Below, piece after piece: positions 4,704 through 14,373 of a stretch of DNA of 33,241 nucleotides. Source of the stretch: Thermoplasmatota archaeon (GTDB lineage: Archaea; Thermoplasmatota; E2; JACPAO01; JAHFTW01). The notes beneath the pieces are model-generated. The model saw only the letters and a program-made list of their open reading frames with translations, searched no databases and had not been told where the DNA came from. Both the position numbers and the translations under genes were made by a program. The stretch spans positions 1-33,241 of the forward strand of contig JBFGSX010000001.1 of assembly GCA_041566495.1 (NCBI GenBank), read 5' to 3'. The stretch's first letter is position 1, and each line of letters opens with the position of its first letter.

Positions 4704-5276
4704 TTGAAGATCCTCTGCGTGGGCAAGAACTACGCCAAGCACGCCGCGGAGATGGGCAGCAGCACGCCGACGTCCCCGATCTGGTTCTGGAAACCTGACT
4801 CGGCCATCGTCGGAGATGGCGAAGCCGTGCACCTGCCGGAGGGCATCGGCGCCGTCCATCATGAAGTGGAACTGGCCGTACGCATCGACCACCGTGGCCG
4901 CCCCGCCGAGATGACCGTGGCCGTGGACATCACTGCCCGCGACCTGCAAGCGGAGGCCAAGAAGAACGGGCACCCCTGGGCCATGGCCAAGGGATTCCAT
5001 TCCTTCTTGCCCCTCGGCCCATGGGTCCCCGCCAAGGACCTCGACGACCAACGCTTGCGCCTCAGCCTTGATGGCGAAGTCAAACAAGATGGGCACACGC
5101 GTGGGATGTCATGGGACGTCCCCACGTTGCTGGACCACGCCTCGAAATGGGTGACCCTTCGCGAGGGGGACGTGCTGTTGACGGGCACCCCCGAGGGCGT
5201 CGGCCCCATGCTGGCGGGCCAGACCATGGTCGCGGAGCTCGTGGGGCACGTCCGCTTGACCAACCCCATCGTCTAG
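4704..5276 (+). CDS. fumarylacetoacetate hydrolase (FAH) family protein
   Basis: (M/L)KILCVGKNYAKHAAEMG....PIWFWKP..A......V.LP......HHEVELAV and GDVLLTGTPEGVGP are hallmark FAH-fold motifs. TTG at 4704 lies 5 nt after the exonuclease stop. The upstream part of track ORF 4479 is out-of-frame overlap with that gene. Confidence 0.85.
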   Translation: MKILCVGKNYAKHAAEMGSSTPTSPIWFWKPDSAIVGDGEAVHLPEGIGAVHHEVELAVRIDHRGRPAEMTVAVDITARDLQAEAKKNGHPWAMAKGFHSFLPLGPWVPAKDLDDQRLRLSLDGEVKQDGHTRGMSWDVPTLLDHASKWVTLREGDVLLTGTPEGVGPMLAGQTMVAELVGHVRLTNPIV

Positions 5277-7303
5277 GCGATGCCCAGCCCTTGGGTGGCT
5301 TGTTGGCCTCCCGGGGTGAGCCGCATACGGACCGAGCGTCCATCCCGTTGTGCAGCGACCAAGCCCGCGTCCTGCAAGCGCTTGAGGTGGTAGGTGGCCG
5401 TGGCAGCAGACAGACCTGCGGCACTTGCCAGGTCCTTGGAGCGAGCACCGGGGGTTTGCCGGAGGGCCGCGAGGATATGCCGGGCACCCTCGGAGCGCAG
5501 CAAAGGCCCCGCGTCGAGGACCGCCCGACACGTGGCGGCGGGGAAGTAGCACGTGTAGCCGGGGCTTTGGCGGGCCCTGATGAGCCCTGCTTGCTGGAGC
5601 TTGTGCAGGTGGTGCCGGATGCGCCCCGGGTTGGCGCCAAGGCGTTCACACAGGGCGCGGAAGTGGAGGCCCGGATCGGCTTCGAGGGCATCCATGATGG
5701 TGGCCCGGGTCGGGTCTTCTAGGAGCTCGTCAGGGCGGAGGCGACTGAACAACGCTAGGCCGGCAGCTTTGAGCGTGGGCCAACCAAGGTAGGCGAGGCC
5801 CAGCAAGGACGCGGCGATGCCCATGCGGGCACCATGGCCTGTGCTTGGCAGGGCCCAGCCCGTGGCGGCATAGCCCGCGACCGTGAGGGGTTCAGCCGCG
5901 GCGGGGGCCGGCATGCTCTGTACAGGTCCGGTGGAGCGCCGTTCGAAGCGTTGGGTCTCTCCTTGACCGTCCAGGGTGATGAGGGTGGCCTCTTCGCCAT
6001 GTGCCAGATCCACGACGGGCAAGCCCGCAGGCCCCCAGCGCAGGTTCTGGGTATGACCCCCGGCGACGCGCACGACGGGGTCTCCGTTCCGGTCGGTGAG
6101 GATCTCGAAGCTCCAGGCATTGGCGCCGGCGTGGCGTTCCTGCGCCGTGACGTGTTGGCCCCAGCGTTCCCATACGGAGGCGACCGTGGGCACGTGGCCC
6201 ACGAGGTGCCTGGGGGGCGCCGCGGGGGCGAGACTGGACGTCTCGATGGGTTGCACGCGGACACCACTCAAGGGCAGGACCTCCCCTTCGTTCTGACTGA
6301 TGCGGACGCTGTATCCTTCTCGCCCATCACTAAGGTGGAGCTCCCAGGAGTGCCTGGTCTCGGAGCCATCGGCTTGCTGCTGGTAGTCGGCGCGGAAGAC
6401 GTACCCCTGGGGGTGGTAGCGGAGCCAGTCCCGCAGTCCTGCGAACGTGTTGTGGCGCACTGCTTCGTCGAACGCTTGGCTGAGCCGGAACGGGTGGTCG
6501 ATGCCCGTGTCTAGCAGACCCCATGTCTCCATCGGGGCCCTGTGGATGGGTGGCGCCACGATGGCGCTGGGTTGGGGTGCTTGGCCTGCTTGGCCATGCT
6601 GGAAGCCGGTGAGGTGGTAGGTGGCCGTGCGGGGTTCCTGAGCGGGGCCCAGGGCGGTGAACTTGTACGTGACGGGGACCGGGATATCGGCGGCGTACCA
6701 CCAATCCATGGTGATGCTGCCCGGCGCGTGGATGTGCTTCAGTCGTAGCCCTTGCTCCACGACCTGCGAGGCCACCAGGGGCCCCGGGGGTAGGCTCACG
6801 CGCATGCCGGGCAGGGTGCACCCGGGCGTGGTGTGAGACGAGCCCGGGCCAGAGAGCAGGCAGTCGCGGTGGGCATCGTATGTGACAGACCGGTGCATCT
6901 CGGCCAGCACGCCTCGGACCTGGTGCTTGACCTGCTCCGTGGCGACGACGTCACCCTCAAGCCACCAGCGGCGCAGTTCTGAGTCGTACCATGTGTCCCC
7001 GGGGTGCAGGGTCGTGCCTTCAGAGTGCCATAGCACCGGATGGGCTTGGATGAGGCGTCCGTCGGAGCCACGGACACCTTCAGGGGGCAGCACCTGGAAC
7101 CGGGGGCCTTGGCTTGGCTCGCCCTCGGTGTGATGCTCGTAGCGCCAGTCCCCTTCGTACGTGACACTGTACGCCGCCACGTCTCCGCCCTGTAGTGCCC
7201 GGGTCTGCACCGACACCTCTTCGATGGGTACGGCCAGGCTGGTGCCGACCAGCAGGATCATCGCGCCCACGGAGACCAGCAGTGCATGCACGACTCGCCG
7301 CAT
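5273..7303 (-). CDS. paralog 1: single-pass membrane protein with large extracytoplasmic domain and C-terminal cytoplasmic tandem winged-helix (ArsR-like) module
   Basis: N-terminal hydrophobic signal/anchor (ALLVSVGAMILLVGTSLA), then about 460 aa non-hydrophobic. TM is MGIAASLLGLAYLGWPTLKAAGLALF (about 5738-5833). The tail (5276-5737) has two wHTH units: DPTRATIMDALEADPGLHFRALCERLGANPGRIRHHLHKLQQAGLI and ARHILAALRQTPGARSKDLASAAGLSAATATYHLKRLQDAGLV. Confidence 0.85.
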   Translation of the reverse strand: MRRVVHALLVSVGAMILLVGTSLAVPIEEVSVQTRALQGGDVAAYSVTYEGDWRYEHHTEGEPSQGPRFQVLPPEGVRGSDGRLIQAHPVLWHSEGTTLHPGDTWYDSELRRWWLEGDVVATEQVKHQVRGVLAEMHRSVTYDAHRDCLLSGPGSSHTTPGCTLPGMRVSLPPGPLVASQVVEQGLRLKHIHAPGSITMDWWYAADIPVPVTYKFTALGPAQEPRTATYHLTGFQHGQAGQAPQPSAIVAPPIHRAPMETWGLLDTGIDHPFRLSQAFDEAVRHNTFAGLRDWLRYHPQGYVFRADYQQQADGSETRHSWELHLSDGREGYSVRISQNEGEVLPLSGVRVQPIETSSLAPAAPPRHLVGHVPTVASVWERWGQHVTAQERHAGANAWSFEILTDRNGDPVVRVAGGHTQNLRWGPAGLPVVDLAHGEEATLITLDGQGETQRFERRSTGPVQSMPAPAAAEPLTVAGYAATGWALPSTGHGARMGIAASLLGLAYLGWPTLKAAGLALFSRLRPDELLEDPTRATIMDALEADPGLHFRALCERLGANPGRIRHHLHKLQQAGLIRARQSPGYTCYFPAATCRAVLDAGPLLRSEGARHILAALRQTPGARSKDLASAAGLSAATATYHLKRLQDAGLVAAQRDGRSVRMRLTPGGQQATQGLGIA

Positions 7304-7321
7304 CAGTGGTTCAGCCGACTC

Positions 7322-7357
7322 AGCGCTATTTAGCAGCGCTAGCCAAGTCGTCGAAAC
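7322..7357 (-). promoter_or_regulatory. promoter of paralog 1: TATA box CTAAATAG (7326-7333) flanked by two AGCGCT palindromes, plus upstream TTCGA box (7351-7355)
   Basis: Only A/T-rich octamer in the 55-bp gap. The C of CTA lies 30 nt upstream of the ATG (7303). TTCGA starts exactly 22 nt upstream of CTA, the same offset as in paralogs 2 and 3. AGCGCT at 7322-7327 and 7335-7340 brackets the TATA box. Confidence 0.5.
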
Positions 7358-7358
7358 C

Positions 7359-9503
7359 TCAGGCCGTCAGGAAGACCCGCCGCCCCACCCGTTCGGCACG
7401 GACGGCGCCCGCTCCTTGCAGTCGCTTCACGTGGTATGCGACGGTGGCAGGACTGAGCCCAAGCCGCTCTGCGACGGCCTTTCCTGTGACGCCTGGCTCC
7501 TTGCGGATCGACGCCAAGACCGCCTGCGCCCCCTTGGAGCGCAGCACCGGAGCGGCCTCCATGCTGTTGCGATCGATGCTCTTCAAGAAGAGGCAAGTGT
7601 AGCCTTCGGTGCTGCGTTTGGTCAGCAGATCATTGCGCAGCAAGTGGTCGATGTGATGGCGCAGGGTACCATTGGCCAAGCCGGTGACGCGACGGAGCTC
7701 GTTGAAGTGGATGCCCGGCTGACCGGCCACCGCATCGACGATCATCTGCCGCGTCGGGTGTTCGAGGAGCTTGGGCTTCTGCAGCCGACTGAACAACGCC
7801 AATGGCGCCGCTTTCAGGGTCGGCCAGAACGCATACAGCAATCCGGCAAGCACGCTGAAGGCACCGATACCAGCCGCCACACCGGCACTGAGCCAGGAAG
7901 CCCCCGCGGGGGTGTCGTCCAAGGGTGGGGCTGTGCTGTCCGCGGCCACCGCATCAGGGACCACGAGACCGGCCCCGCCGAAATCCATCCGAGTGTAGCC
8001 GACGACGTCGAGGCCACTGGCGTCCAGGTAGTCGATGATGGCATCCAAGCCGGTCTCACCGGCCGCGAAGTTCTCGGTGGTGTAGGCCTGCGTGTGCCTT
8101 TCTCCAGCGGTGACCACGTAGCGCGCATCAGAGCATCCCCTGTCGTTGCCCAAGCAGGTCAATCTGTGGCCCCACGAGTTCAGTTCTCCCTGCCCGCCAT
8201 AGTCGATCCAGCGCTGTGCGACGGCCTCGACGGTGGGCGCGGCACGGGGTAGCTGTGATTTGCTGGGCACGTAGGTGCCGCTCCAGCGCACCCAGGGTTC
8301 GACGCTGACCGTGTACTCGGCGACAGCCTCGCGTAGAGCAGCCGGCCAGTCCCGCGCCGCGACGGGCCTCTCCTGGGTCACTTCGACCTGCAACGCTGAA
8401 GGGCCATCGGTGACCGTGAAGGCCCATTCGGTGACGTCGTAATCTGCGGTCGTCCGCAGACTCCGCTCGGAAGCCAGGACGAAGGCGTCGGGGCGTTCCA
8501 TGAAGCGCTGCAGAGAGGCATCCGCCAGGGCGCGGGTCCACGCGGCTTGACCGTCGAAATCGGCTTCGACGGCACCCATGGAGGGGCCCCATGGCTGGAT
8601 GCTCGCCTGTCGCATGGGTGGCATCGGCGCTGCCCGCTGGGGGTCTGGCAAGGGCCGGTCGCCACGGGCGAAGCCCGAAAGGTCGAGGCGGGCGAGCCTG
8701 CCGTCCTCGTGGATTTGTTCCACCCTCAAAGGGACCGGGAGCCCAGGCACATACCAGTGGTGTTGCTCCCCGATCACGACGTGCATCGCCGCCACGCCGG
8801 CAACCTGCTGGACGCCCATGACCTGGACTCGGCGTCCTTCCTCAGCCACGTCCGTGCTGAGCCCATAGCGGAACGAGGAGGCCATGTTGAGGCAGGAATT
8901 GCTGAGGGGGAACGACGTGCCGACTACGAGTTGGCTGCCTGCAAAGACGCGCCCGGCGACGCAGTCGTCCCTGAAGGAGCCGTATTGCTGCCAGTCATAG
9001 GCGATGGATAGGCCTTCTTGGAGCTGGATCCGGGCAGGTTCTTCACCGATCCAACTCGGCGCGCCTCCCCATACTCCCGACGCACCATAGGACAAGTCTT
9101 CATCACCCGCAAAACGCCGGTACTCTTGCCCGTCGACAAGGTCCCACGTGTCGCTGAACAGATCGAAGTCCCACTCCGTCTTGACGACCTGCAGGACCGC
9201 CGCCTCGAGCAACGCACCACGCTCGTCGAAGACCTGCTCTTGCTGCCACGAGAAGCGCATGTAGGTCCAAGGCGTCCGCCAATCGGGTTCACTGTCGCTG
9301 ATCCCTTGGTAGCCTGATTGCCACGGCCCAGTGAGGGTGATCTTGTAGGCGCCACGGTCGCCGATGCGCGGCTCGGCCACAGTCATCGACGCAGCGCGTT
9401 CGTCGCCCGTGGACGCCATGCCGGTGCCAAGGCCGACGCTCACCAAGAGCATGATGAGAAGGGCGATCGGAAGCCGGCCGACAGGAAACCGCATCGAGGC
9501 CAT
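7359..9503 (-). CDS. paralog 2: single-pass membrane protein with large extracytoplasmic domain and C-terminal tandem winged-helix module
   Basis: Same architecture as paralog 1. Signal/anchor is LPIALLIMLLVSVGLG and TM is LSAGVAAGIGAFSVLAGLLYAFWPTLKAAPLALFSRL. The tail (7362-7781) has HPTRQMIVDAVAGQPGIHFNELRRVTGLANGTLRHHIDHLLRNDLL and AQAVLASIRKEPGVTGKAVAERLGLSPATVAYHVKRLQGAGAV. Confidence 0.85.
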   Translation of the reverse strand: MASMRFPVGRLPIALLIMLLVSVGLGTGMASTGDERAASMTVAEPRIGDRGAYKITLTGPWQSGYQGISDSEPDWRTPWTYMRFSWQQEQVFDERGALLEAAVLQVVKTEWDFDLFSDTWDLVDGQEYRRFAGDEDLSYGASGVWGGAPSWIGEEPARIQLQEGLSIAYDWQQYGSFRDDCVAGRVFAGSQLVVGTSFPLSNSCLNMASSFRYGLSTDVAEEGRRVQVMGVQQVAGVAAMHVVIGEQHHWYVPGLPVPLRVEQIHEDGRLARLDLSGFARGDRPLPDPQRAAPMPPMRQASIQPWGPSMGAVEADFDGQAAWTRALADASLQRFMERPDAFVLASERSLRTTADYDVTEWAFTVTDGPSALQVEVTQERPVAARDWPAALREAVAEYTVSVEPWVRWSGTYVPSKSQLPRAAPTVEAVAQRWIDYGGQGELNSWGHRLTCLGNDRGCSDARYVVTAGERHTQAYTTENFAAGETGLDAIIDYLDASGLDVVGYTRMDFGGAGLVVPDAVAADSTAPPLDDTPAGASWLSAGVAAGIGAFSVLAGLLYAFWPTLKAAPLALFSRLQKPKLLEHPTRQMIVDAVAGQPGIHFNELRRVTGLANGTLRHHIDHLLRNDLLTKRSTEGYTCLFLKSIDRNSMEAAPVLRSKGAQAVLASIRKEPGVTGKAVAERLGLSPATVAYHVKRLQGAGAVRAERVGRRVFLTA

Positions 9504-9525
9504 ACATCCCTGACCCCTAATGAGG

Positions 9526-9586
9526 GTTATAGGACGCCTGGAGCGACCTTCGAATCCTCGAAGAAGAGGGTAGAGTGCGTGTCGAA
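9526..9586 (-). promoter_or_regulatory. promoter of paralog 2: TATA box CCTATAACC (9525-9533) plus three TCGAA boxes (9550-9554, 9558-9562, 9582-9586)
   Basis: CTA lies 29 nt upstream of the ATG (9503). The proximal TTCGA lies 22 nt upstream of CTA. The first and third boxes (both TCGAATC on the plus strand) are 32 nt apart. Confidence 0.5.
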
Positions 9587-9604: not shown

Positions 9605-11005
9605 TCAGTGCTGGGTCTGCTTGCGGGGTTCGAGCGCGGCGTCCACTTCTTCCTTGCTGAGGCCAGACATCTCGTAGGCCAGGTCGCGGACCGTGCGGCC
9701 GGTCTTGTAGGAGGTCTTGGCGATCGTGGCGGCCTTGTCATACCCGATGAGCGGGTTGAGGGCGGTGGCCATGCTCATGGACTGCTCCACGTAACTCTCC
9801 GCCTTCTCCTTGTTCGCGGTGGTGCCGGCCAGGCAGTTGTCCACGAAGACGGTGCTGATGTTGCTCAGCAAGCGAATGGATTCCAGCATGTTGTGGGCCA
9901 TCATGGGGAGCATGACGTTGAGGTCGAGTTGGCCCCATTGGCCACCGATGCGGACGGCGGTGTTGTTGCCGGTGACGTGGGCGCCCACTTGGACGACGGC
10001 TTCGCAGATGACCGGGTTGACCTTGCCGGGCATGATGCTGCTGCCGGGTTGGATAGCAGGGAGTTGCAGTTCACCTAGGCCGCATGCAGGGCCGCTGGCC
10101 ATGAGGCGGATGTCGTTGGCGATCTTCATCAAGGACGCGGCGACCGTGTCGAGGGCACCTGCGAGGAAGACGTAGGCATCGCGAGCGGCTTGGGCTTCGA
10201 AGTGGTTCTCGGCTTCCTTGAATTCGAGGTTGGTGGCTTGGTAGAGGTACTCGGCGACTTTGGCGCCGAATTCAGGGTGGGCGTTGAGGCCCGTGCCGAG
10301 GGCACTGCCACCTTGGGCGAGTTCCAGGAGACCAGGCATGGCGGATTCGATGCGCTCGATGCCAAGTTGGATCTGACGGGCGTAGCCACTGAATTCTTGG
10401 CCCAGGCGGATCGGCACCGCGTCCATGAGGTGGGTGCGGCCGATCTTGACCACATCGTCGAACTCGGTGGCCTTCTCCGTCAGGCAGTCGCGCAGGTACT
10501 GCAAGGCGGGGATGAGGGTGTACTTGAGTTCCTGGGCGGCGGCCACGTGCATGGTGGTGGGGATGATGTCGTTGCTGCTCTGGCCACGGTTGACGTCATC
10601 GTTGGGGTGGACGTTCTCGCCGAGGATGCCGCTGGCGATGTTGGCCACGACCTCGTTGGCGTTCATGTTGGTGGAGGTGCCGCTGCCGGTCTGGAAGACG
10701 TCGACGGGGAACTGCTCCCCGTGTTCGCCTTCGAAGATGGAAAACGCGGCTTCCGCGATGGCATCGGCCTTGGCCTCAGGCAGTTCGCCCAGGTCCTTGT
10801 TGGCCAGGGCGCAGGCCCACTTGACGAGGCCCACGGCCTTGACGAACTCGGCGGGCATGCCGTGGCCGGCGACGGGGAAGTTGAGGATCGCCCTCTGGGT
10901 GCTCGCGGCCCACTTGGCGTCGATCGGGACCTCCATTTCACCCATGGAGTCGGCTTCAATGCGGCTGTCGGGTCCGGCCATGGTCCCGAGGGGGGCGTCG
11001 CTCAT
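9605..11005 (-). CDS. fumC: class II fumarate hydratase
   Basis: 466 aa with the fumarate-lyase signature GSSIMPGKVNP, plus SSNDIIPTTMHV and TGSGTSTNMNANEV. CGTAAATC box (11028-11035) lies about 26 nt upstream of the ATG. Confidence 0.95.
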   Translation of the reverse strand: MSDAPLGTMAGPDSRIEADSMGEMEVPIDAKWAASTQRAILNFPVAGHGMPAEFVKAVGLVKWACALANKDLGELPEAKADAIAEAAFSIFEGEHGEQFPVDVFQTGSGTSTNMNANEVVANIASGILGENVHPNDDVNRGQSSNDIIPTTMHVAAAQELKYTLIPALQYLRDCLTEKATEFDDVVKIGRTHLMDAVPIRLGQEFSGYARQIQLGIERIESAMPGLLELAQGGSALGTGLNAHPEFGAKVAEYLYQATNLEFKEAENHFEAQAARDAYVFLAGALDTVAASLMKIANDIRLMASGPACGLGELQLPAIQPGSSIMPGKVNPVICEAVVQVGAHVTGNNTAVRIGGQWGQLDLNVMLPMMAHNMLESIRLLSNISTVFVDNCLAGTTANKEKAESYVEQSMSMATALNPLIGYDKAATIAKTSYKTGRTVRDLAYEMSGLSKEEVDAALEPRKQTQH

Positions 11006-11035: not shown

Positions 11036-11074
11036 GGTGACGGCGCTTCATTTCAACATCATCCCAGGAAGACC

Positions 11075-11102: not shown

Positions 11103-12179
11103 ATGCGTTGGCTCGTCGTGGCCCTCATCGTCTTGGCTGGCTGTGCCGAGGCTCCCGTTCCGGTCCTCGAAGGACCCGACCCCACCGTGCCCATCTATGG
11201 AGGCATCAACCCCGAGTCCTTGCACTTGCTAGGCTCCGACAACAACGAGACCGGAGACGCTCGGGTCCTAGTGGGGCGCTGTGCCAGCCAGCAGAACGTC
11301 TTCGCATACACGTTCCCTGCCCGCTTGGACAATGCATCCGCAAGTAGGGTCGTGCTCACATTCTCCCATGACGTCCCCAACGCCACATCGTTCCTCATCG
11401 CCTCTTTTGCGGATTCCCCTGGAGGCCTGATTCCGACCCGCTTGGTGGCTGGAGGCGCCCACGCATCGGAGGCCCCCCCTTCCATGGGCCAAGTAGAGTG
11501 GTATGAGGCGATGCCAAGGTCGTTCACCATACCCGTTGGACCGGATGGCATGGTGCGCATCGCCATCGCATGCGAAGGCGAGGGTGTCGTCAATTACGTC
11601 ATCGACGAGCCCACGAACCCGGAGCGGCCGGACTACCTGGAGCCCGTGGTGGCGTCCGGTTTCGACGCGTTCCTTGCCGACGGTTACTCCCTCCTCTACG
11701 TTCCGCTTCCTCCAAACACGCGCATCACGGGACCCGCGTGGACGTTGGTGGGAGACGTCATCGTCGACTACTCTCAGACAGCCCCCAATGGTGTTCGGGT
11801 CGGCGAGACCCACATTCAATGGGGTTCGTCCAGGGCGGGCTGGACCACGACGATGTGCGGCCACGATGGTTGGGCAGAGACCGGCACATGGGCGTACGAA
11901 GCAGACTTCGGGCACGGCCCCGAAAGCGCGGGGGGGCTCATCGTTGACAGCATCGCGACGCTGGGATTGAGCCAGATGTTGTTGTTCGGAGACATGGTGC
12001 TCTCCCACTCGGGCAGCGGCGGGGAGGCTCCATGGTTCCGGTTCTCCGTGGAGCACCAAGCGTCGTCGGAGGTAGCGTGGTCCACGTGGTGCGTGGGGAC
12101 CCACTTGGGCGCGCCGCTCGACGTCTTGTTCGCCGCCGCAGGGGCACGTGAGTGGGACATGCCGGAACCGTTCCTTTAG
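11103..12179 (+). CDS. hypothetical lipoprotein
   Basis: MRWLVVALIVLAGCAE is a signal peptide with lipobox. No family recognised. ATG at 11103 lies about 25 nt after TGTAAAGG (11075-11082). The upstream part of track ORF 10425 is antisense to fumC. Confidence 0.7.
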   Translation: MRWLVVALIVLAGCAEAPVPVLEGPDPTVPIYGGINPESLHLLGSDNNETGDARVLVGRCASQQNVFAYTFPARLDNASASRVVLTFSHDVPNATSFLIASFADSPGGLIPTRLVAGGAHASEAPPSMGQVEWYEAMPRSFTIPVGPDGMVRIAIACEGEGVVNYVIDEPTNPERPDYLEPVVASGFDAFLADGYSLLYVPLPPNTRITGPAWTLVGDVIVDYSQTAPNGVRVGETHIQWGSSRAGWTTTMCGHDGWAETGTWAYEADFGHGPESAGGLIVDSIATLGLSQMLLFGDMVLSHSGSGGEAPWFRFSVEHQASSEVAWSTWCVGTHLGAPLDVLFAAAGAREWDMPEPFL

Positions 12180-14257
12180 GCGGCAGCCGGTCCAAGTTGC
12201 AGGATGGTGCCGTTGCCAGCCTTCTGGACCCGCACGACCCCGGCGTCGCTGAGGCGCTTGAGGTGGTAGTGCATGGTGCTGGGACTGATGCCGATCTCAT
12301 TGCGGACATCCACCGCCAGTGAGCCAGGGTGCGCTCGGATGTGCGCGATGATCTGTTGGGCGGCGGCGCTCTTGAGGACCGGGGCCGCTGCCAGAACGTG
12401 GCGGTCGGTCGCCTTGGGGAAGTAGCAGGTGTATCCTGCACTTCTGTGGACGGTGAGGAGCCCGCCTTCGTGCAACTTGTGAAGGTGATGCTCCACGGCA
12501 CCTTGTCCGATGCCGAGGCTGCGCACCAGTGCTTGCTGGTGGATGCCAGGTTCTGCTTCGATGTGGTCCATGAGACGGCGGCGTTGAGGGTTCTCCAGCA
12601 ACTCCGGGGTCTTGATGCGGCTGAACAGCCCCATGAAGGAGGTCTTCAGAAGGGGGTGGAGGAAGTACACCAGGCCGGCGATGAGAGCCCCCGCGCCGGC
12701 CACGGCGACCTCACGAGCGCTCAGCATCGGTCCAGGGTCGAACCGGGATAGGCTCATGGCGGAGGCTTGGACAGGGGGCGCCGGAGGGGTGCTGCCTTCG
12801 GCGTACCAATCCTGAGTGTGTTCCACGTAACGGGTCAGGATGAAGGAACCTGCACGGGTGTCCCATTGGACATGACTGGCCTGGTATTGATCGGTGTAAT
12901 CGTTGACCACGTAAGCCACGGTCCTGTGGTCCCGCGTGTATGCGTCGTGCCCGGCGGTCACTTGCACGATGGCTTCATCGCAGGTCTCCCCGCAGCGGAT
13001 CCAGGTCCGGACGGCATTTCCGGGAGTGTGTTGGTAGTCTGGGCCGCGGTGTTTCTCCCAGATGGCCAGCATAGAGGCCAAGGTGGGCATGCGCGCCGGC
13101 GCGGCCTGGGGCTTCGGGTGGGAGTAGCCGCGGGCATCCTCGATGCCGCGGTCGCTGAAGTCCCAAGTACCTGGGCGGTCGAGGGGCGTGACCAGGTCGT
13201 TGTCTTGGGTGATGAAGCGCGCGTGGAGGCTGATCCATTCGTCACCGTCGGTCACGTCGAAGTTCCAGTAGTGCCAGACGTCCCCTCGGTCCACATCGTG
13301 GAAGTGTCCGGAACTCAGGCCCCGGACGTAGGCATCCGGGTGCGTGGCCAAGTAGTCCCGTAGAGTCTCGTAGGACGGATCATCCAACGCAGCTTGCCAT
13401 GCGTCTTGCGGGGACACAGGCAGGTCTACTCCGGTGCTGTCGATACCCCAGGCCGGCATCGGTGCTGTTCGGAGGTGCGGGACACCCATGGCGCGGGGCG
13501 TGTCTGGTTGGAGCCGCACGTCTGCATTGCCCCGGGCATAGGCCTCCAGTGTCCAGACCGCTTCCGTGGCGCCCGCTTCGACGATGCGCACGGGGTATGG
13601 GATGCCACTCTGATACCAGAACGTCATGGCAAGACCGCCGCGGTGGGCCTCCACCACCATCGTGTTTGTCTCTTCGATGTGTCCGGCGGTGACGTAGTGG
13701 CCGATGGCATCCATGGCACGGACCGCACCCCAGCAGGAGACTCCCGGGAACGTCTGCTTGGCCACGGCGACGGTCGTGCCTTGCCATGGTGCGACGAGTC
13801 CGCAAGGGATGGCGCCGACGTGGGGTTCGAAGCGGAGGTAACGCTGCTGCATGTCCATTTGGGTGCCGTCTTGGACGGTGGTAGACGATACCAGGGCAGC
13901 AGACGCAACAGCGTCCAGGCTTCCAGGGGCCAGGTACCAGACCAGGTCAGTGGTGTGCTTGCCGTTGGCTGTGTTCTCGACCACGTGGACGGCGTTGTAC
14001 CATGCGCGAGTGCCATCGGCCAGCAGGACCTGTTCGTCCGGTAGCCAGGACAAGTTGTACTGGCCCATGCGGCTCGGGGAGCCACCCGTGATGGTGTAGC
14101 GGGCTTCGTCGCCGGCCTTCGGGGCGGCGAACGAGAACGAGCCCTCGGGCTCGGCCGCCTCGGCGTTGCTGAGCCCCACGGCGCCGATGGTGCCACCGGC
14201 AAGGAGGAACACAGTCAGGGTGAAGGCAAGGTGACGGGGTCGGGTCAACAAGTGCAT
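12176..14257 (-). CDS. paralog 3: single-pass membrane protein with large extracytoplasmic domain and C-terminal tandem winged-helix module
   Basis: Same architecture as paralogs 1 and 2. Anchor is LAFTLTVFLLAGGTIGAVGL and TM is VAVAGAGALIAGLVYFLHPLLKTSFMGLFSRI. The tail (12179-12613) has NPQRRRLMDHIEAEPGIHQQALVRSLGIGQGAVEHHLHKLHEGGLL and AQQIIAHIRAHPGSLAVDVRNEIGISPSTMHYHLKRLSDAGVV. ATG at 14257 is preferred to GTG at 14272 because the TATA box starts only 13 nt from 14272. Confidence 0.85.
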   Translation of the reverse strand: MHLLTRPRHLAFTLTVFLLAGGTIGAVGLSNAEAAEPEGSFSFAAPKAGDEARYTITGGSPSRMGQYNLSWLPDEQVLLADGTRAWYNAVHVVENTANGKHTTDLVWYLAPGSLDAVASAALVSSTTVQDGTQMDMQQRYLRFEPHVGAIPCGLVAPWQGTTVAVAKQTFPGVSCWGAVRAMDAIGHYVTAGHIEETNTMVVEAHRGGLAMTFWYQSGIPYPVRIVEAGATEAVWTLEAYARGNADVRLQPDTPRAMGVPHLRTAPMPAWGIDSTGVDLPVSPQDAWQAALDDPSYETLRDYLATHPDAYVRGLSSGHFHDVDRGDVWHYWNFDVTDGDEWISLHARFITQDNDLVTPLDRPGTWDFSDRGIEDARGYSHPKPQAAPARMPTLASMLAIWEKHRGPDYQHTPGNAVRTWIRCGETCDEAIVQVTAGHDAYTRDHRTVAYVVNDYTDQYQASHVQWDTRAGSFILTRYVEHTQDWYAEGSTPPAPPVQASAMSLSRFDPGPMLSAREVAVAGAGALIAGLVYFLHPLLKTSFMGLFSRIKTPELLENPQRRRLMDHIEAEPGIHQQALVRSLGIGQGAVEHHLHKLHEGGLLTVHRSAGYTCYFPKATDRHVLAAAPVLKSAAAQQIIAHIRAHPGSLAVDVRNEIGISPSTMHYHLKRLSDAGVVRVQKAGNGTILQLGPAAA

Positions 14258-14277: not shown

Positions 14278-14373
14278 CAATATAGGGCGCGCGGGGCGAT
14301 CATCGAAAACCCGCCCACCCCCCTGGGCGGATCTTCGAAAACCGAGGCGCCCATCGGACCAAGGCTCGAAAAG
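14278..14373 (-). promoter_or_regulatory. promoter of paralog 3: TATA box CCTATATTG (14278-14286) plus three TCGAAAA(C/G) boxes (14303-14310, 14335-14342, 14366-14373)
   Basis: CTA lies 28 nt upstream of ATG 14257. The proximal TTCGA lies 22 nt upstream of CTA. Boxes are spaced 32 and 31 nt. The first two sit in near-identical 14-mers, GATC(A/T)TCGAAAACC. Confidence 0.5.

Follow-up and report, generated by a model that had tools for sequence, protein, structure and literature searches.

Transcriptional regulation in archaea is known from few cultured models, and almost nothing is known of it in the uncultured Thermoplasmatota. Among the closest described systems are promoters that carry short regulatory boxes upstream of the position of the TFB-recognition element (BRE; TFB, transcription factor B). 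The flaB (arlB) promoter of Sulfolobus acidocaldarius has two TCGAC-N5-GTCGA repeats, the ArnR boxes, between -43 and -84, both of which are needed for binding (PMC6396743). Haloarchaeal gas-vesicle promoters have a bipartite upstream activator sequence (UAS) for GvpE of about 20 nt (8-N4-8) next to the BRE, whose internal spacing and distance to the core are unalterable (PMC2241852). Here we describe a bipartite site, TTCGA-N5-GCTCCA, upstream of a gene for a putative membrane-bound sensor-regulator, henceforth paralog 2, one of three such paralogs in the window, by which we mean the whole 33,241-nt stretch that was analysed. The window is contig 1 of the metagenome-assembled genome (MAG) G000 of a Thermoplasmatota archaeon (1.93 Mb in 343 contigs, 72% complete, 64% GC). 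It offers a cis-element defined to the base, with a fixed register to the core promoter, helically phased copies and, in the product of the regulated gene itself, a strong candidate reader.

How does this locus compare with what is known? In position, the sites of paralog 2 (-51 to -36 and -83 to -66) lie within about -40 to -85, as do the ArnR boxes. The likeness extends to the TCGA core and N5 spacer of those boxes, which also lie upstream of the BRE, and to their reader, ArnR/ArnR1 being a membrane-bound one-component activator (PMC6396743). However, the ArnR boxes are 15-bp inverted repeats, whereas the site here is asymmetric. ArnR has its helix-turn-helix at the N-terminus, a HAMP-like and cytoplasmic sensor region, and a pair of transmembrane helices at the C-terminus (PMC6396743), unlike paralog 2 with its predicted signal anchor, large ectodomain, single transmembrane helix and C-terminal tandem of winged helix-turn-helix (wHTH) domains. 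ArnR also belongs to another phylum and targets archaellum and pili, whereas the genes behind the site here are the sensors themselves and lipoproteins. The invariant register of motif and TATA box, seen here in 62 promoters, recalls the GvpE UAS by functional analogy only. GvpE is a soluble, bZIP-like activator of unrelated sequence, no phased distal copies are described for it, and the PmcA element TGAAACGG-n4-TGAACCAA is unlike the motif found here (PMC2241852). The EarA boxes of euryarchaeal fla/arl promoters, which we can liken to the present case by their description only, are similar in that a surface-structure operon has a short box repeated several times upstream of its BRE, the copies being needed for activation; as far as that description goes, they have another sequence and are read by a small soluble regulator that is not autoregulatory (PMC6396743).

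On the protein side, each cytoplasmic domain of the family matches the ArsR/SmtB fold. ArsR/SmtB proteins are soluble homodimers that act on palindromes with metal-controlled release, whereas here two different domains are fused within a membrane protein and the site is asymmetric. Regulators of the ToxR/CadC type are likewise single-pass proteins with an extracytoplasmic sensor joined to a winged-helix domain and with direct repeats upstream of the promoter. However, they have the opposite topology, with an N-terminal OmpR-type wHTH, employ a single, oligomerising wHTH, and contact bacterial RNA polymerase; we know of no homology between them and the family here. In the literature searched, we found no paper describing this sensor family or its motif.

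The features on which the argument is built are as follows, with distances counted from the A of the ATG and site scores taken from the position weight matrix (PWM) introduced below:

7359-9503, minus strand: paralog 2; translation with predicted signal anchor, ectodomain of about 500 aa, transmembrane helix and tandem ArsR-like winged-helix domains
9501-9503, minus strand: ATG of paralog 2 and, judging from the TATA distance, putative leaderless transcription start; N-terminus kept in the ortholog (MASMR versus MVSMR)
9512-9524, minus strand: block CTCATTAGGGGTC between TATA box and ATG; 12 of 13 bases the same in the ortholog of MAG G018
9527-9532, minus strand: TATA-like box CTATAA, first base 29 nt before the ATG (-29 to -24)
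9537-9554, minus strand: proximal bipartite site TTCGAAGGTCGCTCCAGG (-51 to -34), containing box 1
9554-9550, minus strand: half-site 1, TTCGA (box 1)
9544-9539, minus strand: half-site 2, GCTCCA
9558-9562, minus strand: box 2, TTCGA, 8 nt upstream of box 1
9569-9586, minus strand: distal copy TTCGACACGCACTCTACC (-83 to -66), 32 nt upstream of the proximal site; PWM score 7.0; its TTCGA (9586-9582) is box 3
9607-9605, minus strand: stop codon TGA of fumC
9605-11005, minus strand: fumC (class II fumarase), upstream neighbour of paralog 2; Pfam Lyase_1 (2e-97) and FumaraseC_C

Bipartite site and core promoter

In gene orientation, the spacer from fumC to paralog 2 reads TGA-agcgggctcctaccacga-TTCGA-cacgcactctaccctcttc-TTCGA-gga-TTCGA-aggtcgctccaggcgtc-CTATAA-ccctcattaggggtcagggatgt-ATG. 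An initial annotation of this stretch had described an architecture of three TTCGA boxes at 9550-9554, 9558-9562 and 9582-9586, and on re-measurement these coordinates hold, as do those of the TATA box, stop and ATG. Exactly 17 nt separate box 1 from CTA, an offset that had been called identical in paralogs 1, 2 and 3 and indeed measures 17 nt in each; boxes 1 and 3 are 32 nt apart, both reading TCGAATC on the plus strand, and the proximal site ends 6 nt from CTATAA. The boxes are real, but the recurring unit is a 16-nt bipartite site, TTCGA-N5-GCYCCA, rather than the 5-nt box. Nor is box 2 general: among 62 family promoters, a TTCGA at its offset of 8 is found only in paralog 2 and its ortholog in MAG G018, and at offset 9 in one other promoter. 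Together, boxes 1 and 2 form the inverted repeat CTTCGA-GGAT-TCGAAG (9563-9548).

Could such an arrangement arise by chance? For TTCGA alone, the window has 117 copies where 46 are expected, and the MAG holds 29 same-strand clusters (at least 3 within 70 nt), which lie mostly in coding sequence with spacings that are multiples of 3 because of TTC-GAN codon pairs; TTCGA counts by themselves are a weak, uninformative statistic. The composite, TTCGA at a fixed distance from the TATA box, is beyond chance. TTCGA-N17-CTAWA occurs four times in 1.93 Mb, three of these being the three paralog promoters, and the proximal site of paralog 2, with a PWM score of 15.2, ranks at the top of 3.8 million positions of the MAG. 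Without the TATA box, the 16-nt pattern is only about three times as frequent as its reversed control.

For the motif analysis, the first 24 family members, drawn from more than 20 genomes of the same taxonomic family, were joined by 76 fetched regions to give 91 family genes from 32 Thermoplasmatota genomes. The 24 share TTCGA-aGrTc-GCYCCA, described by an 18-nt PWM of 13.9 bits, with the motif starting 50-52 nt before the ATG in 21 of them. Sites scoring at least 5 with an in-frame ATG 49-53 nt downstream precede 62 of the 91 family genes (58 of 91 at 50-52 nt), and the logo over these 62 promoters reads CGaggaTTCGAaGATCGCCCCAgnCgCCYY-WTAW-G. While TATA was not a criterion of their selection, a TATA core appears at +24 to +27 from the motif start (T 0.89, A 0.82). 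As a comparison, 99 generic TATA-plus-ATG promoters of the MAG showed no TTCGA or GCYCCA at these positions. We further scanned 197 genomes for the strict pattern TTCGA-N5-GYYCCA-N2-C-N5-WTAW, which gave 14 matches in the family itself (11 of 32 genomes), one in a sister family of the same order and one in 159 genomes from other families of the class; the reversed control gave one match in all 197 genomes. Twelve of the 14 matches lie ahead of family genes, one lies ahead of a gene for a 588-aa secreted protein, and the remaining one is unassigned. The motif is restricted to this lineage.

The 32-nt spacing between boxes 1 and 3, which had been noted as shared with paralog 3, recurs more widely. 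Of the 62 promoters, 17 have a second motif copy at 29-33 nt upstream of the proximal site, five have it at 39-43 nt and three at 19-23 nt, offsets of about three, four and two helical turns, respectively. Given a background rate of 4.8e-4 per position for sites scoring at least 5, a copy within a 4-nt window in at least 10 of 24 promoters has p of about 1e-21, or 1e-11 at tenfold background, kinship between the genes being ignored in both figures.

Is this region a promoter at all, as had been proposed? CTAWA has 308 copies on both strands of the 1.93-Mb MAG, several-fold below the prediction from base composition, and TATA-like words appear to be avoided outside promoters. Aligning the regions upstream of the first ATG of all long open reading frames (ORFs) gave mostly codon periodicity, with only a faint AT rise at -27, and in its place a histogram of TATA-to-ATG distances was used. 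For long ORFs with high GC at third codon positions, the distance of the ATG to the first base of an upstream CTAWA or YTTATG peaks sharply at 27-31 nt genome-wide, a peak that a control word lacks. The 29 nt of paralog 2 fall inside it, so that its TATA-like box has the spacing usual for leaderless genes here, which agrees with the proposal; judging from the fitting position of TATA, the region upstream of paralog 2 is a putative leaderless archaeal promoter. In Haloferax volcanii, leaderless transcripts make up 72% of protein-coding transcripts (PMC4983044).

The core promoter has a further peculiarity. The 99 generic promoters of the MAG are A-rich, BRE-like, 4-7 nt upstream of TATA, whereas family promoters are C-rich there and have no purine- or A-rich BRE (paralog 2 reads GGCGTCC), which suggests that their BRE is weak. 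A haloarchaeal BRE (CGAAA; PMC4983044), considered for the CGA core of the box, is ruled out, as the box lies 17 nt from TATA rather than adjoining it. The fixed distance to TATA could also be that of an extended core-promoter element for an alternative TFB or TATA-binding protein (TBP), and some genomes do have two adjacent TFB genes (G008:C5:152867-154413, G013:C18, G014:C1, G007:C46, G012:C142). As the mark of an alternative TFB the motif is ruled out by the single TFB gene of several nearly complete genomes that carry it (e.g. G002, G006 and G009). In addition, the BRE position lies downstream of the motif, whose further copies, another 30-42 nt upstream, are too far away for TFB to reach, and paralog-specific variants would ill suit a basal factor. 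We therefore consider a core-promoter element of this kind very unlikely.

Conservation at the fumC junction

With fumC as a query, the closest named relatives of the locus are MAGs labelled 'Thermoplasmatota archaeon'; paralog 2 alone as a query found none. In three congeneric genomes fumC is 89-94% identical, and in all three a family gene with the proximal site in register lies downstream of it. A true ortholog of paralog 2, with 58% protein identity, is found only in G018, and there all three boxes are kept. The check on conservation at orthologous junctions between fumC and the paralog, which had been named as one that could refute the observation, thus turns out in its favour. The consensus of the two promoters, TTCTTCGAGGATTCGAAGGTyGCTCCAGsCGTCCTATAA, is identical save two positions (y, s); the proximal site itself is identical but for one spacer base, with boxes, GCTCCA and TATA in the same register. 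Further upstream, the ortholog has retained ACGATTCGA of box 3 without change, while the 19-nt spacer that separates box 3 from box 2 has for the most part diverged. The family genes directly downstream of fumC in the three congeners (L040, L041 and L042) are 58%, 33% and 34% identical to paralog 2. Sensors at this conserved position may thus be subject either to very fast evolution or to exchange.

Might the boxes belong to the 3' end of fumC, as termination or read-through control, or be chance clusters after all? Box 3 lies 18 nt past the stop codon of fumC, the two genes are separated by neither a T-run nor a hairpin terminator, and TTCGA is frequent in the genome. However, the fumC stop of the ortholog lies about 190 nt further off, while the distances of the boxes to ATG and TATA are kept; the same architecture is seen at promoters that are not in the vicinity of fumC, and the neighbours of fumC in other genera are unrelated ones. 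This argues against any fixed relation of the boxes to fumC, and the interplay of fumC read-through with the promoter that had been suggested finds no support. The spacer from the fumC stop to the paralog-2 ATG has no T-run of at least 4, no hairpin terminator, no Rfam match and no sigma-70-like promoter, and its predicted RNA fold is nothing unusual (z-score 0.44); as no terminator intervenes, transcription may nevertheless run on from fumC. An RNA element or terminator at the boxes is ruled out by the missing Rfam match, the missing terminator hairpin and this z-score. With the composite also far beyond chance, an origin in the fumC 3' end or in chance is the least probable of the explanations that we considered.

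Candidate readers of the site

What kind of protein could read the site? All three paralogs are built alike: a predicted signal anchor at the N-terminus is followed by an ectodomain of about 480-500 aa, a single transmembrane helix and, at the C-terminus, two winged-helix domains, the cytoplasmic tail of paralog 2 covering about residues 565-714. In Pfam, they match HTH_HVO_0163_N, HTH_20, HTH_24 and HTH_5 (HTH_20, HTH_5 and HTH_24 above cut-offs), and NCBIfam matches are ArsR/SmtB-like, with NF033788 above its cut-off for paralog 1 only. HVO_0163, the namesake of the first of these domains, is mentioned in one acetylome paper, which gives no function for it where it is mentioned. Genomes hold 2-11 matches to the family. 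In an AlphaFold2 model of the last 175 residues of paralog 2, the transmembrane helix is followed by two domains with helix-helix-helix-strand-strand topology; the wHTH domains are modelled with predicted local distance difference test (pLDDT) values of 83-93, and the predicted template modelling (pTM) score of 0.49 makes the interdomain geometry unreliable. In Foldseek, the single domains superimpose on ArsR, CadC and CzrA at a root-mean-square deviation of 1-1.6 Å. Foldseek returned no DNA complex of a comparable tandem wHTH, and a sequence search of the PDB gave weak ArsR-like matches only.

The site varies together with these domains. At base 13 of the motif (GC[T/C]CCA), 11 of 62 promoters have a T, and every one of the proteins that they encode shows R, V, H or N in front of the invariant HH in the recognition helix of wHTH1 (helix 72-84 of the AlphaFold2 model, in which the co-varying residue sits). 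Among 37 proteins with E or D before HH, base 13 is never T, but C in 36 and G in one. Within the window, paralog 2 combines LRHH with GCTCCA, and paralog 3 combines VEHH with GCCCCG. Likewise, seven promoters have TTGGA or TGGGA as half-site 1, and all seven encode D or N as the third residue of GL[S]PATV in wHTH2, as compared to none of the 28 TTCGA promoters; a TCAGA half-site pairs with PQT. Such variants coexist within single genomes (G030, G021, G022, G023 and G000) and are thus paralog-specific, not genome-specific. Moreover, the copies within a promoter vary in concert. In the 27 promoters with two copies, the two share 9.3 of 11 core positions, as compared to 7.5 for shuffled pairs, the observed value being reached in 0 of 5000 shuffles, and where the proximal half-site deviates from TTCGA, the distal copy has the same deviant pentamer in 11 of 16 promoters. 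Together, co-variation and concerted copies favour self-recognition, that is, a possible autoregulation, with few independent events behind them.

We hold, with moderate confidence, that the bipartite site would be bound by the tandem wHTH module of the family, most probably by that of paralog 2 itself, in a positive autoregulation controlled by the ectodomain. In such a mechanism, the cytoplasmic wHTH tail of paralog 2 would bind TTCGA-N5-GCTCCA at -51 to -36 with one wHTH per half-site. The centres of the half-sites are about 10.5 bp apart, which would place the two domains in successive major grooves on one face of the helix; from the co-variation, wHTH1 would be assigned to GCYCCA and wHTH2 to TTCGA. 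Copies on the same face could bind cooperatively, as with the weaker second copy three turns upstream (-83), and the protein bound just upstream of the BRE position would aid the loading of TFB and TBP and thereby activate, in a loop gated by the extracytoplasmic domain.

Several observations weigh against this reading. Going by topology, a membrane-tethered protein would have to reach its promoter, either while tethered or after release of its tail. As many as 29 of the 91 family genes have no site at the standard distance, and in the G018 ortholog the distal copy, although its TTCGA is kept, has a score of less than 5. For the most part, the co-variation follows clades: T at base 13 needs five changes on the tree, a quick maximum-likelihood tree with poorly resolved deep nodes, of which well-supported branches force two, and an independent-pairs sign test with two to four pairs on supported branches is underpowered (p at least 0.5). 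As for the concerted copies, spacer identity between proximal and distal copy is also raised (3.56 versus 2.78), and some of the concerted variation could stem from duplication of promoter segments. Finally, genes from outside the family have the motif in front of them as well, namely six lipoprotein or secreted-protein genes of the MAG and the gene for the 588-aa secreted protein in G007, so that the system would not be purely autoregulatory and a common regulator becomes possible.

The evidence bears also on the sign of regulation. Since ArsR/SmtB-type domains are classically repressors, and the proximal site, ending 6 nt from CTATAA, could overlap the BRE position, the tail might instead act on the same boxes to block the access of TFB and TBP. 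However, archaeal repressors usually cover TATA/BRE or the start, whereas the site lies wholly upstream (-51 to -36), with phased copies still further upstream, which is how known activator sites of archaea are laid out, for example the ArnR boxes and the GvpE UAS. The missing A-rich BRE-like stretch, too, suggests a weak basal promoter that would need help. These features favour activation, and we judge autorepression to be unlikely.

The non-family targets raise a different question, namely whether paralog 2 is its own reader. In the MAG, nine sites score at least 6 and are followed by an AT-rich TATA core and by an ATG 49-53 nt downstream, and the products of all nine carry an N-terminal signal sequence. 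They belong to paralog 2, paralog 3, an 802-aa family member on contig 78, and six lipoprotein or secreted-protein genes outside the family. From this gene content, the motif marks a putative cell-surface regulon that includes the sensors. A single common regulator, be it a soluble tandem-wHTH protein or a master member of the family, would explain these six genes as well as the secreted protein of G007; the MAG does encode shorter proteins with the same tandem wHTH, and the consensus is broadly alike in all paralogs. However, different core variants (TCAGA, TTGGA, TTCGA; GCTCCA versus GYCCCA) are found side by side in one genome; orthologues of different genera retain them, and they correspond to recognition-helix residues that are specific to the clade. 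Proximal and distal copies share the deviant variant, where one reader would pull all sites to one consensus. We thus regard a common regulator as doubtful, if worth keeping in mind.

Self-recognition by paralog 2 can be generalised to the family, which we offer as a tentative possibility: its members would be a large, fast-diversifying set of one-component sensors in this order of Thermoplasmatota, each activating its own leaderless promoter through a bipartite operator that co-evolved with both recognition helices, so that mutually insulated circuits would arise, which would also drive lipoprotein and secreted-protein genes. If true, this would be a natural case of operator and regulator specificity diverging together in archaea that can be read from genomes. 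Self-recognition, should it hold, would provide a testable model of an archaeal membrane sensor that passes an outside signal straight to a promoter, and a natural specificity series, R/V/H/N with T versus E/D with C at base 13, and D/N with TTGGA versus S/A with TTCGA, which could be used for studying winged-helix DNA recognition. For annotation, the motif is of use in marking start codons and the putative cell-surface regulon in these MAGs.

Further promoters and minor observations

The remaining genes of the window that concern the family or its motif, and their sites, are the following:

5273-7303, minus strand: paralog 1
7338-7355, minus strand: proximal site TTCGACGACTTGGCTAGC of paralog 1; PWM score 5.5; ATG 52 nt downstream; weak second half-site TGGCTA
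12176-14257, minus strand: paralog 3
14290-14370, minus strand: array of paralog 3, three copies from 14307, 14339 and 14370; PWM scores 12.1, 12.7 and 8.3; spacings 32 and 31 nt
11103-12179, plus strand: gene for a 358-aa lipoprotein between fumC and paralog 3; product starts MRWLVVALIVLAGC, with LAGC lipobox
11051-11068, plus strand: motif-like site TTTCAACATCATCCCAGG of the lipoprotein gene, with the ATG (11103) 52 nt downstream and TATA-like TGTAAAGG; PWM score 6.7

In paralog 1, TTCGA (7355-7351) is followed after 17 nt by CTAAATA from 7333, and in paralog 3, TTCGA (14307-14303) is followed after 17 nt by CTATATT from 14285. The promoter of paralog 1 fits into the 55-nt gap after the stop of paralog 2 (7304-7358, minus strand), and its ortholog in G018 also has a weak second half-site (GGCCAA; PWM score 7.8). 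The lipoprotein gene at 11103-12179 is probably a member of the same regulon, judging from its site.

Five other genes of the MAG show the full geometry (C173:1520, C116:5814, C180:3154, C101:6636 and C38:6715, all on the minus strand). They encode lipoproteins or small secreted or membrane proteins, with a lipobox of the LAGC or LSGC type in four of the five. The 588-aa secreted protein of G007 (L163; G007:C1:153878) has no wHTH tail, and a perfect composite site, TTCGAGCCTCGTCCCACCCTCCCTATAT, lies 51 nt before its ATG; the gene is about 4 kb from the nearest family gene, with six family genes within 35 kb.

Two details concern paralog 2 alone. The block CTCATTAGGGGTC between TATA box and ATG is not common to other family promoters and may be a candidate for a second, gene-specific site. 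An out-of-frame ATG lies 4 nt upstream of the start codon (9505-9507, minus strand; gATGtATGg) and opens a frame of 72 codons; it is absent from the ortholog.

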